A DNA stretch of 26,045 bases from a virus (taxonomy: Duplodnaviria; Heunggongvirae; Uroviricota; Caudoviricetes), in IMG/VR virus record IMGVR_UViG_2695420600_000004; one strand, written 5' to 3'. This document shows positions 3,001-12,000 of the stretch, piece by piece. Each line of letters opens with the position of its first letter. The first letter of the stretch is position 1. A program made the position numbers.

Positions 3001-6000
3001 TTTTTCGTCGTGCTCGCATCCTCAAGCGCCACGGCGGATGCAATATCCTCTGCCCGTTTTGCCGCTGTCTCAGCGCGCGTTGCTGCAGATTCCGCCGTAC
3101 TTTTGCTCTGAGCTGCTGCCGTCGCACTACCAGCAGCCTCTGTCGCCTTCGTGGATGCCGTCGTGGCGCTGCCCTTCGCTGCTGACGCCTGTCTGGTCGC
3201 CTCATCTTTTGAAGCAGACGCCGATGATGCCGATGACGCCGCCGAACTGGCGGACGATGCGGCAGCCGTTTTTGAGGATTCTGCACGGGTTTCCGACGCT
3301 TTCGCGTTCGTTTCGGATGTCTTCGCTGCGGAAGCTGACCTCGCTGCTGCCGTGGCCTGCTCAGTGGCTTCGCCAGCCTTCGTTGTGGCTGTTGAAGCGG
3401 ATGATGCGGCGCTTTCTGCCGATTTTCCGGCGGCGGTGGCACTGGCTGAGGCCTGCCCGGCACTTGTTGACGCGGCGCTGGCAGACGACGCAGCCGCTGT
3501 TTTTGAGCCTGCCGCAGCTGAGGCACTCTGTCCCGCTGCCGTTTCAGAAGACCTGGCGTTCGTCTCGGACGTTTTGGCCGCCTTCGCAGAATTTGCAGCC
3601 GCCGTCGCCGAGGAAGCTGCGCTACTGGCGCTTGATGATGCGTTCGTTTCTGATGATTTTGCCGCCTCTTTTGAAGCCGACGCATCCCGGGCTGAGGTGG
3701 CAGCTTCTGACGCTTTCGTGGTCGCGGTGGATGCAGAAGTGGCTGCTGATTGTTGTGACGCTGCCGCATTCGTTTCTAACGTTTTCGCCGCACCGGCACT
3801 GGTAGCCGCCGCGCTTTTTGAGGACTCTGCAGCGGCAGCACTTTTTGAGGCTTCAGTGGCCTTTGTTGATGCCGTTCCTGCGCTGGAAGACGCTGACTGA
3901 GCCGACGAAGCGGCCTGTCCGGCTGACGTGCTGGCTGCACGTGCTGAATCTGCAGCATCAGTCGCATGGGTTGCCGCCTCACGGGCTGATGTGCTGGCAT
4001 CGCTGGCTGATTTCTTCGCGGCTGCCGTGTTCTGTGCCACCGCGGACGCGTTACGCGCCACCTCTTCCACCATCAGCTCAAAACGGCGCAGTGCCTCCGG
4101 ACGGGCATCATCCTCCGTCATGGCACCGAGAAAATCATTCAGCGTACCGGGTCGGGAATCTTCATACACGGTGATGGTCCCGGCATGTGACGGCGGGAAT
4201 CCTTCCACCAACAGAATAACGCTGTACTGACCGTACTCAACGTCCATGCTGTAACGCCCGGCTTCATCCGGATTTTCTGAGGCCAGCGTGTTCACCACCA
4301 CCGTGGTGCTGTTACGTTTTGCTTTCAGCTGGATTGTGCAGTTCTGTACCGGTTTTCCTGTGCCGTCTTTCAGTACACCTGAAATCTTTACTGCCATATT
4401 CACCCCACAAAAAAGCCCGCCTGAACCGGCGGGCTGTCATAACACTGTGTTACCTGGCTAATCAGAATTTATAACCGACACCCACGATGAAACCGTCAGT
4501 GCGCCAGAGACGTGTTGCTGTGGCGACCGTCATCACTTCCGGTCAGCACATCGTGCGTTTTCCCCTTATTGTCAGTTACGCGGATATAATCCCCGGAAAA
4601 AGTCGACACACGGCTGTAAGCCACACCCGCCATCGCATACGCGCTGAACCATTCATTCACGCGCACAGACGGCCCCGCCATCACGCTGAACCAGCGGTTA
4701 CGCACGGAATCTTCATGCCAGCGGGTATCGCTGTAACGGGTCAGCTGGCGATTCTTGTCTCCTGCATAGCTGAATGACGTCACCAGCCCCAGCGTATCCG
4801 TAAACTCATAACGGTATTTCACGTTAATCCCGTTCAGATCATCACTGCCGGGAACGTTGGTCCGGGCATGAAGATACCCCGCGCTCAGCGTGGACTGATG
4901 TTCAGACGCCCATGCAGGCGCACCGGATACGGCCAGGCAAATGGCTGCGGACAAAATGGCTGCACAAACTTTACGCATAATTACCTCTCGCTTTTCTGCA
5001 ATAAAAAAGGCGTCATTCCTGACGCCATTTATTGGGGTTATAAATATTTCAACGAATACTGATGCCGGAAGCCGCTTTTTTGGTCACAATCACCGTACAG
5101 TCGGTGATATTGCCTGCCCCCTGATTGCCTTTCTGGAAAATCTTAAACTCCAGAGTGACGCTACCACCACCACTAGGCATATCAATAACTGCACTGTAAC
5201 TACCGGGAATGGCACCTTTAGTTTCTCTGGATGCGATTAATACGCCGTTTTTGCGAACTTCAAAACCATAACCCGTGTATCGCGTGCCTCCTGGGTTATT
5301 TCCGCTCCCCGGATCGTCATACGCTATACCGTTAAAAATAATGGGCGGAATAATAATCTGGCGGTCAAAGTTATGATCATCGCTTATGGTGACTGTAACC
5401 GTCCCGTTTGGTGTTTCCGTGTTACCCCACGTACCAGCCTGTTTCGGAAATGATTTGGATACAGCTTTAACGAAGTCACCTCTGACCTGAGTCGCCTCCA
5501 GCATGCCCTTAATCGTACAGTTTTCATTTACCGTGACATTGTTGAGCGTCCCGGCGTTCGCATTCACACTGCCACTGATATCCGCATTTTTAGCGGTCAG
5601 CTTTCCGTCCGGAGTCAGGGAAAATGCCGATGGATTTCCACCGCTGGTAATGGTGGGGGCCGTCAGGCGTTTCAGGAACACGTCGTTCATGAATATCTGA
5701 TCGCCCTGACCAACAAACATCGGCTTTGTGTTGCCATTCGCAGGATTAATCATCGCAATCCTGTCTGCCGCCAGCAGCACCTGACTCTGCATTCCTGCTG
5801 GCGTATTCTCAATACCGGCACCGATACCCGCAATATAAAGGCGTCCGTCCTTCATCTGTTGCAGCTTCACAGCCCACATGCTGTTCAGATTATTATTTGT
5901 ATCAACCTGAAACTGATCGCCCTGACCAACAAACATCGGTTTTGTGTTGCCATTCGCAGGATTAACCATCGCAATCCTGTCCGCCGCCAGCAGCACCTGA

Positions 6001-9000: not shown

Positions 9001-12000
9001 GGATACTCTGCAGTCCCTTCACCGGACCTTCTATCAGTCCCTCACCAATCGCATCAATCACGCTCATCATCTGCGTGGATTTGAGATTATCCTTCGCCTC
9101 ACGAGGCGTGTGTGCCTTACCGCCACCTTTTCCCATACAGCCTTCCCCTGAATAAATTAACCGCCACTTGCCATTCCGTACAGAAGTCGGATATCCTTCG
9201 CCCGAAAAGCATGAAACACATTTCTGCCATGCTAAAGAGAAACCCCGGTATCAGCAGATACCGGGGTTTTCTTTCATGCCCACCGATAATCCTGTTGGTT
9301 AAAACCGGTAATGGCATAAAAATTCTGAATATCTTCACATTTTCACAAACTGACTGTGGCGCGTATAATTTCTCTGCGTTAATTTTTTTGTCGTGATATA
9401 AGAATAATTCCTTACACTTAATCTTCGTAACTCTCCCGCAGTTCCTGTCCGCGATCACTGCGGGATTTTTTTATTCTTTTTACCCCTGCCGCCCGATAAC
9501 CACGACCTTTCCGCCCCCGCCTTCATCACGGGTGCTGATGTCCTGGGATATACGGCGGGAGCCAACCAGCATTTCCCCGTAAGGCACCGGCATCGGGTTC
9601 CCCTGGGCAATCATGTTATCCAGTGAGGAAAAGTACGTGTTCTGTCTGCCGTTATCCGTTGCGCGGTAATCCGGTGTTTTTGCCTTCGGGGCCAGCATCT
9701 GGGCCACACCGCCCAGAATCATGCTGGCTCCAAGTGAAAACAGCATCGTGGTGGCAGAAAAACCACCGGCTGCCAGGGCTGAACCCCATAACGCCATTGA
9801 TGCCCCGGCAGTGAAGAAAGAGCCCACGATGGCTGCCGCCCCCAGCACAATCTGCAGTCCACCCTTTCCGGCCCCGGCCAGTCGCGGCACAATGTGGATG
9901 ACCGTTCCCTCACCCAGCTGTTCGTGAAGACGGGCGTACACCGCCTCCGGTGCCGTGTCATAACCGGCAATACGTATCTGGTACCAGCCTTCGTTCATCT
10001 GACGGCGAAAGCCCGGCATCTGCATCGACAGGGCGCGAATGGCTTCCGCTGCCGTGTTCACATACAGGCTGAGGCGGCGGCCAAATCGTTGTAAATCCCC
10101 GTGAAGGCAGATGCGTGCCAGTGGCGGTGACGCCAGACTGAATGCGTTCGTCGTTGCCATTTTTCGGAATACCTCTCCCGTTTACTCAGTTGTTCAGGCA
10201 GATGGTGAAGCAGCTCACCGTTGCCGCAGTAAATGGCGGCATGGTTCGGTACCGAAGCACCAAAGCAGCACAGCAGAATATCGCCCGCCTGTGCAGAGGA
10301 CAGGGGCACCCGGTAAAAGCCGGTGACCGCCATATTGTCCAGGTAAAGGTTCTGACCGTTGCGCCACCAGTCATCCTCGCGATGAAAATCCGGCATTTCA
10401 GTCCCCGCCAGATGATAAGCATCCCGGAACAGCGTGTAACAGTCCGTCACCCCGTGCTCAAAGCGCCGTCCTGTCAGATGTGGCACACAGCGGAATTTGT
10501 GAATGTCACCCCGGCAGACCAACCACCAGGGCAGTGCGCTTTTTATCTGCAACCGCCGGTCAGCCTCGCTCAGCCAGGGCAGCCCACCGGGATGACTGTG
10601 GACCAGTGCCACAATCTCCCCCTGCATCTCTGCCCGCAGCCAGTCTTCCGGTGCGATACGAAAATACGCCTCCGGCTCTGCGGAAATATTCACACAAGGG
10701 ATATACCGCTCCCCCTCCGGCGTGCTTATCACGAAGCCGCACGACTCCGCAGGCGCACACCGCCGGGCATGTGCCAGAATCGCTGATTCAGTCTGTGTCA
10801 TAAACCGGGATTTACTGCGAAAGTTTATTAATGGAAAGGAAACCGCCAAAATTGCCGACATTCCTGCGCAGTTCACACCCGCGCATGCACTTGCTGCATC
10901 TGTCCTTACGGATATCCGTGGTGGGGTTGTCGAACTCATCCGCCACCGCAGGACCGTTATACCCGCATTCATCTCCCCGGTAATCCCACATACAGGTGTT
11001 CGCCAGCATGATGCGACCGGGAAACAGCGCCCCGTCCGTCTCGGTCGGTGTAGCCAGCACAAACGAGGCCGTCATGGCTGTCAGCTGCGACATCTGCTCC
11101 ACCACCCAGCGGTCACTCAGCTCCTGCTCCGGGTCCGCCTCCGGATTGCCCGCAACGAAATTCACCGCATCCAGAAAACGGGCATACACCCGGCGGCGGA
11201 CCACCGTGGCCCCCACCAGACTCTGCAGGTCTTCCGCCATCCCGGTGACCAGACCGAACAGATTGGACACCGTCAGCGACGGTCTGGCACTGCTGCCCCG
11301 GCCGTTCATCTCAAAGCCGCTGCCGTCAATCGGGTATGCCTCATACTTACGCCCCTGCCAGGTGACCGGCTCCCCTTTTTCATTCAGCTCATTACAGAAA
11401 AAATACCGCTCACCACCCTGTACCGTCAGGTCGATTTCCCAGAGTACCACCCGCGGTGACTGCTCTGACTTAACCGACTCGTTCAGACTTTCTTCGCGAA
11501 TATCCTGCATCAGTTCACCACCTGCTTAAACTCCGCGCTGAACTCAACGCGCAACATCCCGACCCGCGCAGACCACCCGGCACAGGTCACCTTTATCTGC
11601 CGGTATGCATAGGGTGGCTTCCACAAAAATGCCTTCCAGCCACCGTGCTCTGCCAGGAACGCTTCCAGATGCCGGGCCTCCTCCCGGGTCACGGAAAGCG
11701 TCACCCTGTATGTTTTCAGGTCAGCATTCAGCCCTGCCGCCATACGCTGTGAGTACCCGTCACCAAAACGCACTTCACGCACCGATGGCTGCGAGTTCAC
11801 CTCCATATCCGGCTTCACTTTCCAGCGAAAGGTTTTCATCCACCGCTCCCTGATAACATACCGCCATCACGCAACTGCAGCCGGAGTTCATCCTGTGCCC
11901 CCTTGCGGGCCATCTCATACACCGCTTTCATCAGCTGCGGCCCTGCCCGCCCGTTGGGGCCGTCGTTCTGAATCACCACGTGATTGTTCTGATTAAAATT

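Follow-up and report, generated by a model that had tools for sequence, protein, structure and literature searches.

A decayed lambdoid J gene in a Shigella sonnei draft scaffold that probably merges two prophages

The DNA analysed here, referred to as the window, is a stretch of 26,045 nt that makes up the entire contig CXCN01000049.1, a scaffold of the draft S. sonnei assembly GCA_001251255.1. It contains lambdoid phage genes from Nu1 through I, a broken J gene, and lom, stf and tfa. We considered E. coli, instead of Shigella, as the source and rejected it, as no complete E. coli genome matched at above 94-96% while S. sonnei matched at about 100%. Two lambdoid prophages, named P1 and P2 here, are found in finished S. 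sonnei genomes, and 53G and CP044191.1 each have both. P1, which lies at about 2.076-2.096 Mb in 53G (HE616528.1), is an IS21-truncated remnant without head genes and is the bearer of the broken J (loci L003-L014); of the ten P1 loci fetched, nine begin at an IS21 directly upstream of Z and lack head genes. P2 possesses the genes Nu1 to H as well as an intact J of 1165 aa (loci L027, L030 and L033). The window consists, in order, of P2 sequence (26045-12010), P1 sequence (11959-7015), a weave of both J alleles, and P2 sequence again (5658-1). Its features are the following.

12010-26045, minus strand: P2 part, with DUF1398, Nu1, A, W, B, C, D, E, FI, FII, Z, U, V, G/T and N-terminal H
11960-12009, minus strand: 50-nt stretch of H that is identical in P1 and P2, with P2 sequence above 12010 and P1 sequence below 11959; a probable chimeric assembly join
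9480-11959, minus strand: P1 part upstream of J, from the C-terminal end of H through M, L and K to I (226 aa); 0 mismatches to 53G P1
8933-9136, minus strand: J fragment 1, codons 1-67, then a premature TGA at 8933-8935
7271-8932, minus strand: J codons 69 to about 622 of the P1 allele, in the original frame to PPAVQHLTA, with the FNIII-A_GpJ and Phage-tail_3 domains; 0 mismatches to S. sonnei 53G
7264-7270, minus strand: the kept CTGACGG copy that marks the 22-bp deletion, with the frame shifted downstream and a stop at 7220-7222
5049-7226, minus strand: apparent C-terminal J ORF of 725 aa, an assembled composite in three pieces, with the P1 and P2 J alleles interwoven; not a real product as written
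6973-7014, minus strand: first J stretch identical in P1 and P2, where P1-only sequence stops and the weave starts
6546, no strand: scaffold join 1, N in the public record and T in the window; the pieces on either side, 6547-6948 and 6145-6545, represent one and the same J interval (94% identity), a spurious 402-nt duplication
5912, no strand: scaffold join 2, N in the public record and T in the window; the pieces on either side, 5913-6128 (P2 type) and 5697-5911 (P1 type), represent one and the same J interval (93% identity), a spurious 216-nt duplication
4496-4978, minus strand: lom of P2, 160 aa after an 83-bp deletion between CTGGCG repeats (kept copy 4502-4507), the same in finished S. 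sonnei P2
1-48, no strand: beginning of the IS1 copy behind tfa in P2, a repeat in which the scaffold ends; window position 1 aligns to position 11250 of locus L027, 8 nt before IS1 insA

The J fragments together contain six Pfam domains of the gpJ family (FNIII-A_GpJ, Phage-tail_3, Ig_J, Ig_J_second, Phage_Tail_Tip and Ig_GpJ_C; E-values 1e-23 to 1e-72), and the gene follows M-L-K-I and precedes lom and stf in the window, as it does in loci L001, L002 and L025. Lambda gpJ (NP_040600, 1132 aa), the tip attachment protein or central tail fibre, has the same series of Pfam domains and the same position after I and before lom. The two genes are about 75% identical in DNA sequence over their 5' two-thirds, and the spacer between I and J is 343 nt in the window and 60 nt in lambda. 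The intact gpJ genes of E. coli prophages and Stx phages (2013C-4991, WP_106912640; phage ASU11) show 94% DNA identity, have an I-J spacer of 342-343 nt and consist of one 3492-nt ORF. All intact homologues are one ORF each, of 3492-3498 nt, and J is also continuous in lambda, STEC316 and GPEC657, so that a natural split of J into separate genes, which the earlier note had named as a reading that would overturn its own, does not occur among the homologues. The J of the window does not form an uninterrupted ORF of about 1130-1165 codons, and it is a pseudogene of the lambda gpJ tip attachment protein family, not a functional member. We found nothing specific in the literature describing this J pseudogene of S. 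sonnei.

The earlier note had held that J is broken by two lesions, a TGA at 8933-8935 (codon 68, where lambda has Phe) and a second lesion near 7255-7270, where a deletion of about 25 bp shifts the frame. Alignment bore out exactly these two lesions, including the lambda residue at codon 68; the size of the deletion did not hold, as it is 22 bp relative to the intact allele. On the minus strand the first lesion reads GTC TGA CGC. Codon 68 is TTC (Phe) in lambda J, which is uninterrupted, and TGG (Trp) in the closest intact allele, that of E. coli 2013C-4991 gpJ (94% identical); intact orthologues have either TGG or TTC at this position. The ancestral codon in the S. sonnei P1 allele was most likely a Trp codon and not a Phe codon, and a TGG-to-TGA nonsense change in the J of P1, a remnant that is fixed in S. 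sonnei, would account for the first lesion. In the second, the J frame is lost after PPAVQHLTA and lambda-like sequence is picked up again in another frame. Alignment to the 2013C-4991 gene gives a single 22-bp deletion at about codon 622, through which about 7 codons that are present in all intact alleles examined are lost. The 22 bp missing from the P1 gene and present in the intact 2013C-4991 gene are CTGACGGTGGAGGTGAGCGCAG; in the intact gene they are flanked by a CTGACGG(T) direct repeat, and their loss between the CTGACGG repeats would be of the kind usually ascribed to replication slippage. The gpJ genes of E. coli prophages and Stx phages differ from the window J in retaining both the TGG and the 22 bp, and the deletion junction had no match in 5,426 complete E. 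coli genomes.

These lesions are real mutations of the decayed P1 remnant of S. sonnei, and we consider it highly likely that both the intact phage context in which they appear and the extra length of J are artefacts of a short-read fusion of P1 and P2. The loss of the P1 head genes would be due to an IS21-associated truncation. Tail-tip assembly is seeded by J; therefore, the P1 copy of J cannot make a tail. This reading departs from the earlier note, which had described genes A through I as intact and had placed the damage at the receptor-binding end alone. The genes from Nu1 to N-terminal H belong to P2, whose J is intact, with 5-7 SNPs in 14 kb between this part of the window and P2 of finished S. 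sonnei. The lesions at codon 68 and at about codon 622 both fall outside the C-terminal receptor-binding domain, whose frame is still open.

The change from P2 to P1 creates a hybrid H of 853 aa, which across the assembly collection was found in two draft contigs only. Because this hybrid is missing from the finished genomes of both allele groups (53G; CP044191.1), in which P1 and P2 are separate, the impression that A to I are intact and only J is damaged is very probably an illusion of assembly. On a comparison of genomes, the H join is likewise very probably an error of assembly and not a true recombinant, with the assembler having presumably passed from P2 to P1 inside the 50-nt stretch that the two share. 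It is conceivable, though in our view improbable, that the hybrid is real, and that gene conversion between resident prophages copied a P1 segment into P2 and inactivated P2, leaving the N joins alone as artefacts. The segment transferred in this case, again improbably, would reach from the 3' end of H through M, L, K and I into the broken J, of which it would take in the 5' two-thirds, and would be present in some S. sonnei isolates. If true, this would mean that decay had spread between resident prophages, a dead J having moved together with M-L-K-I from a remnant into the only structurally complete lambdoid prophage. The public record has no N at the H switch and the contig is continuous there, the 50-nt identical stretch is long enough for homologous recombination, and an identical hybrid H protein occurs in two assemblies. 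However, in the sister draft with the same hybrid (locus L024) the P1 and P2 parts both carry the allele variants of another group of finished genomes, so that the same event with the same breakpoint would be needed twice. The finished genomes with those allele sets, 53G and CP044191.1, have separate P1 and P2 prophages and an intact P2 J, and no other assembly of the collection has the hybrid H. Reads of 54 nt, assembled at a k of 35-49, would also be unable to resolve a shared stretch of 50 nt.

These read and k-mer lengths follow from the probable origin of the draft. Holt et al. 2012 are credited with the S. sonnei assemblies whose CX.. accession series neighbour this one, and their data set consists of 54-bp paired-end reads. 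Assembly in the Sanger pipeline is by Velvet, with k set to 66-90% of the read length, followed by SSPACE and GapFiller, with joins marked by N, and its authors state that scaffolding and gap filling "can lead to false joins". From the accession series and sequence identity, rather than from record metadata, we infer that CXCN01 belongs to the Holt 2012 set and is a draft of this Velvet/SSPACE/GapFiller pipeline; the part of the pipeline paper's supplement that was accessible contains no match to the CXCN, CXDB or GCA numbers. The scaffold resembles artefacts of these programs: its public record carries N at the two joins in J, the flanks there are redundant, and the switch in H falls within a shared stretch the size of a k-mer.

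The J "gene" of the window is 4088 nt long, compared with a true broken length of 3452 nt, and shows two apparent in-frame tandem duplications, of 402 nt (two copies, 6145-6948) and of 216 nt (two copies, 5697-6128). In P1 of finished genomes the third J fragment is instead 513 aa long, and next to it come a lom of 199 aa and an stf of 918 aa. Over 22.5 kb, positions 6546 and 5912 are the sole differences between the window and CXCN01000049.1, each being a base in place of N. SSPACE puts a single n where an overlap is predicted but undetected. At all informative sites but two, the 3' third of J is of P1 or P2 type, and the overlapping contig ends are reciprocal mosaics (2-1-2 versus 1-2-1), as would be expected if both alleles were present with their phases scrambled. 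The contig of the sister draft terminates at 6981, within the first stretch identical in P1 and P2. It would appear that the assembler collapsed and phase-scrambled the 3' thirds of two J genes that are 93-97% identical, and that overlapping contig ends were then placed in series over two single-N gaps, giving two false in-frame duplications. We also considered an origin of the foreign J pieces in an ETEC- or avian-type allele, as GPEC657 is 100% identical to 5913-6128, and rejected it, since P2 of S. sonnei itself explains all informative sites but the two noted above.

It seems to us very improbable that the 402-nt and 216-nt repeats are instead real, with the second Ig-like domain and a portion of the tail-tip domain duplicated in frame to form a natural length variant of the fibre. 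Both lengths are divisible by three, for which the chance is 1 in 9 if the duplications are artefacts, and Pfam detects two Ig_J_second and two Phage_Tail_Tip domains in a single uninterrupted ORF. Against this, each junction is an N in the deposited sequence, the two copies are P1/P2 mosaics of reciprocal pattern and not diverged duplicates, and the sister contig stops where the first repeat begins. The N joins and the mosaics likewise led us to reject tandem duplication under selection, which the lengths divisible by three had suggested. Neither duplication junction was matched in 5,426 complete E. coli genomes or in any S. sonnei locus fetched. The E. coli test used a concatenate of three 43-44-nt probes that is unable to seed on one side alone; 80-nt junction queries are uninformative, as their two half-matches get merged into one place. 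An exact look-up of the 725-aa ORF also returned no match, although this gene is called on the source contig itself, which makes the look-up uninformative.

The two lesions recur in independent assemblies that include finished chromosomes, and on a comparison of sequences the TGA and the frameshift are real mutations and not sequencing errors. The window is identical base for base to finished S. sonnei 53G from 11959 to 7015, both lesions included, and the P1 J pseudogene of 53G yields the same 67-aa and 547-aa fragments; the 725-aa fragment, the P2 lom, stf and tfa and the P2 head genes that distinguish the window from 53G P1 are all attributable to assembly. Exact copies of the 67-aa product were found in 633 blocks of public assemblies, finished S. 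sonnei genomes among them, and of the 547-aa ORF product in 247 blocks. This identity to 53G, together with the same truncated products in public assemblies, argues against read errors. Although the source assembly is of low quality and demonstrably wrong within a few hundred bases of the lesions, we give practically no weight to the idea that these are errors of the draft and that the gene is intact in the organism, as both lesions are present in all 20 of the independent S. sonnei loci fetched (L003-L022), finished chromosomes included, and the 5 kb flanking them are identical to 53G. UGA can be decoded as Trp, and near-cognate readthrough would restore the original residue if the ancestral codon was TGG, as is probable; expression of J by such recoding at codon 68, combined with a ribosomal frameshift at the deletion, is nevertheless hardly credible, since the deletion costs the gene about 7 codons that every intact allele examined has, P1 in finished genomes is without head genes, and extra lesions of H, I and J that are specific to particular strains (L008, L010 and L011) show a pattern of neutral decay.

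The lesions are already known as sequence, being present in every finished S. sonnei genome examined, and they represent routine prophage decay. S. sonnei is a pathogen known for its pseudogenes and IS expansion. A classic example of another lambdoid tail-fibre gene split by a frameshift is stf of the laboratory phage lambda PaPa, of which both ORFs (orf-401 and orf-314) are in the lambda record. In lambda PaPa a change of one base shifts the frame and the phage is viable, while the J of the window has several lesions and belongs to a remnant; stf is dispensable for plaque formation and J is essential for tail assembly. Both a complete phage in which only J is broken and a J lengthened by two domain duplications would come from a scaffold that merges paralogous prophages, and such drafts would mislead the mining of genomes for tail-fibre diversity, prophage intactness and pseudogene counts. 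The base that replaces N in the window conceals the sole direct clue. At the scaffold end that lies in IS1 (window 1-48), the query gave matches in 5,419 of the 5,426 E. coli genomes and in many plasmids.

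Translation of the minus strand from 9136 to 5049 gives a lambda-J-like protein in which, as the earlier note had it, codon 68 is a stop (TGA, 8933-8935, in the context GTC TGA CGC). Beyond this stop the J frame is open up to ...PPAVQHLTA, which is followed by 13 codons out of frame and a stop at 7220-7222, and the J-like protein then picks up in another frame. Of the intact alleles found, gpJ of E. coli 2013C-4991 is the closest (one CDS of 3492 nt, 94% identical), and alignment with it places a single 22-bp gap in J; a frameshift by deletion had been proposed near 7255-7270, and it stands with its size corrected from about 25 bp. 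The missing stretch is CTGACGGTGGAGGTGAGCGCAG, after which the intact gene has a second copy of CTGACGG; the window retains one copy, at 7264-7270. Deletions between short direct repeats usually leave such a trace. Codon 68 is TGG (Trp) in the closest allele and TTC (Phe) in lambda and in two lambda-like alleles. Because the closest allele has TGG, the lesion is most simply read as a G-to-A change of that codon, and the ancestral residue here is likely to be Trp; the Phe originally suggested is correct for lambda itself. By domains and position the window J belongs to the lambda gpJ family, but it lacks the uninterrupted ORF expected of that family and is therefore a pseudogene.

The broken gene is widespread in S. 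sonnei. Exact-protein look-up in public assemblies returned the 67-aa N-terminal J fragment in 633 blocks, finished chromosomes including HE616528.1 (strain 53G) among them, and the 547-aa middle fragment in 247. J in those genomes reads as 67 + 547 + 513 aa, without duplications. It lies in a truncated lambdoid prophage (P1) that, in nine of the ten loci matching the 67-aa fragment, starts at IS21 directly upstream of Z with the head genes absent; in the tenth (L010), a holin gene and a fragment of a transposase take the place of IS21. The J lesions are thus those of a pseudogene in a decaying prophage remnant fixed in S. sonnei, and the allele in the window is identical to one in public finished genomes and nothing new. 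The lambda tail tip is nucleated by J, and a stop at codon 68 with a frameshift at codon 622 therefore abolishes tail formation from the P1 copy. Both codons lie outside the C-terminal receptor-binding domain (Ig_GpJ_C), which contradicts the view that damage is confined to the receptor-binding end. In finished genomes the whole head module is also gone from P1, and individual strains carry further lesions (I split in locus L008, H split in L010, an extra 17-nt J deletion in L011), which is the pattern of neutral decay.

A second lambdoid prophage (P2) was reached in S. sonnei 53G via the tfa protein of the window, and in other finished S. sonnei genomes via its V protein. Its gene order is DUF1398, Nu1, A through H (853 aa), M, L, K, I (190 aa) and then an intact J of 1165 aa, followed by a 160-aa lom, a 1027-aa stf, a 150-aa tfa and IS1. 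P1 and P2 are both present, at separate sites, in 53G and in CP044191.1. Base-by-base comparison with the two prophages assigned the window as follows.

Origin of the parts of the window
26045-12010: P2 part, 5-7 SNPs in 14 kb
12009-11960: 50-nt stretch with the same sequence in P1 and P2; site of the switch
11959-7015: P1 part, zero mismatch to 53G
7014 to about 5700: P1-type and P2-type sites alternating
5658-1: P2 part

The switch falls in H, and it is very probable that this is an assembly error and the scaffold a chimera. By exact-protein look-up the 853-aa H protein of the window occurs on only two contigs, CXCN01000049.1 (GCA_001251255.1, the window) and its sister draft CXDB01000079.1 (GCA_001256715.1). 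The neighbouring CX.. accession series contain S. sonnei assemblies that are credited to Holt et al. 2012, a data set of 54-bp paired-end Illumina reads. Sanger's pipeline at that time began with Velvet, k being 66-90% of read length, and went on to SSPACE and GapFiller, tools that by the pipeline authors' account "can lead to false joins", the joins being marked with N. From the accession series and the sequence identity we infer that CXCN01000049.1 came from this set and this pipeline; the accession was not found in the supplement of the pipeline paper. A stretch of 50 nt shared without a difference is beyond what 54-nt reads and k of 35-49 can resolve. It could also support real recombination, a gene conversion producing a true hybrid H, but we consider this improbable. 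The sister draft has a hybrid H identical to that of the window with other allele variants on both sides: its P1 part carries 8351C and 7431G, as do six S. sonnei loci (L005, L006, L008, L009, L010 and L012), and its P2 part carries 18891C and lacks 19 nt of gene C, as does CP180280.1, whereas the P1 part of the window is the 53G allele set. Since finished genomes of both P1 allele sets (53G; CP044191.1) have P1 and P2 separate, with J of P2 intact, a real event would be needed twice at one breakpoint. A graph error is expected to recur at the same shared node. The impression that genes A to I are intact and only J is damaged would then have come from a head and tail part of P2 joined to the broken J of P1.

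Artefacts are also seen in the 3' third of J. The window J "gene" is 4088 nt long, against about 3490 nt in relatives, and repeat searches found two tandem in-frame repeats.

Repeats in the 3' third of J
6145-6948: 402 nt, two copies, 94% identical
5697-6128: 216 nt, two copies, 93% identical

Because of these repeats, Pfam detects Ig_J_second and Phage_Tail_Tip twice each. No match above 94% to the repeat region was found in any complete E. coli genome, and probes across either junction had no hit among 5,426 complete E. coli genomes, nor in the S. sonnei loci that were fetched. Comparison of the window with the public record over 22.5 kb revealed just two differing bases, 6546 and 5912; both are N in the record and T in the window, and they coincide precisely with the two repeat junctions. 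Ambiguity characters were evidently swapped for a base, which hides the scaffold gaps in the raw sequence. With N at both junctions, the window consists of no fewer than three assembled pieces in a row (...-6547 / 6545-5913 / 5911-...), whose ends cover the same J stretch twice. The sister draft contig ends at 6981, shortly before the first repeat. In the alternating region every informative site except two has the P1 or the P2 base, and where contig ends overlap their mosaics are reciprocal, 2-1-2 versus 1-2-1 in the 402-nt overlap and 2 versus 1 in the 216-nt overlap. Such mosaics would be expected from one genomic copy per allele with the phase scrambled by the assembler, and would not fit diverged real duplicates. 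Both duplications are thus scaffold joins. The assembler would have crossed from P2 to P1 within the 50-nt stretch common to both H genes and scrambled the phase of the P1 and P2 alleles in the 3' third of J, and overlapping contig ends would have been laid in series over single-N gaps, leaving two false duplications. The look of an intact head and tail with only J hit, and of a J lengthened by domain duplications, is very probably a product of assembly; the practical gain is a caution that short-read drafts can contain prophage chimeras and N-masked scaffold joins.

P2 also carries lesions. Its lom (4496-4978) has lost 83 bp between CTGGCG direct repeats (retained copy 4502-4507), which leaves a product of 160 aa. 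Finished S. sonnei genomes (L027, L033) have this lesion in their P2 too, and it is the second deletion of the repeat-to-repeat kind in this region. The sister draft (L024) and finished CP180280.1 (L032) both lack 20228-20246, 19 nt of gene C (prohead protease / scaffold); C is split there, so the P2 head module is also decaying in that genome group. The 1029-aa side tail fibre gene of the window (stf, 1314-4403) is part of P2 in finished genomes and has an Ala/Ser/Thr-rich low-complexity stretch of about 350 aa between its phage_tail_N domain and the fibre repeats. The roughly 750 nt (49-797) that separate tfa from the end of IS1 are visibly A+T-rich with no convincing ORF, and the stretch recurs in P2 of 53G (L027, about 10454-11250). 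The I-J spacer (9137-9479) is 343 nt long, compared with 60 nt in lambda, and is the same spacer as in an E. coli O157-type prophage (L001, 342 nt); its sole ORF is a doubtful one of 113 aa (9117-9458, minus strand). Downstream of P1 stf in loci L003-L022 (about 14.3-19.5 kb in L004), the arrangement of tail-fibre C-terminal cassettes and opposed Caudo_TAP genes, which a 60-aa resolvase/invertase remnant adjoins, varies among S. sonnei assemblies and resembles either a Mu G- or P1 C-type invertible host-range segment or a misassembly of one. The G/T overlap (14806-14830) contains the slippery heptamer GGGAAAG, also present in lambda as the site of the programmed -1 frameshift that gives gpGT.
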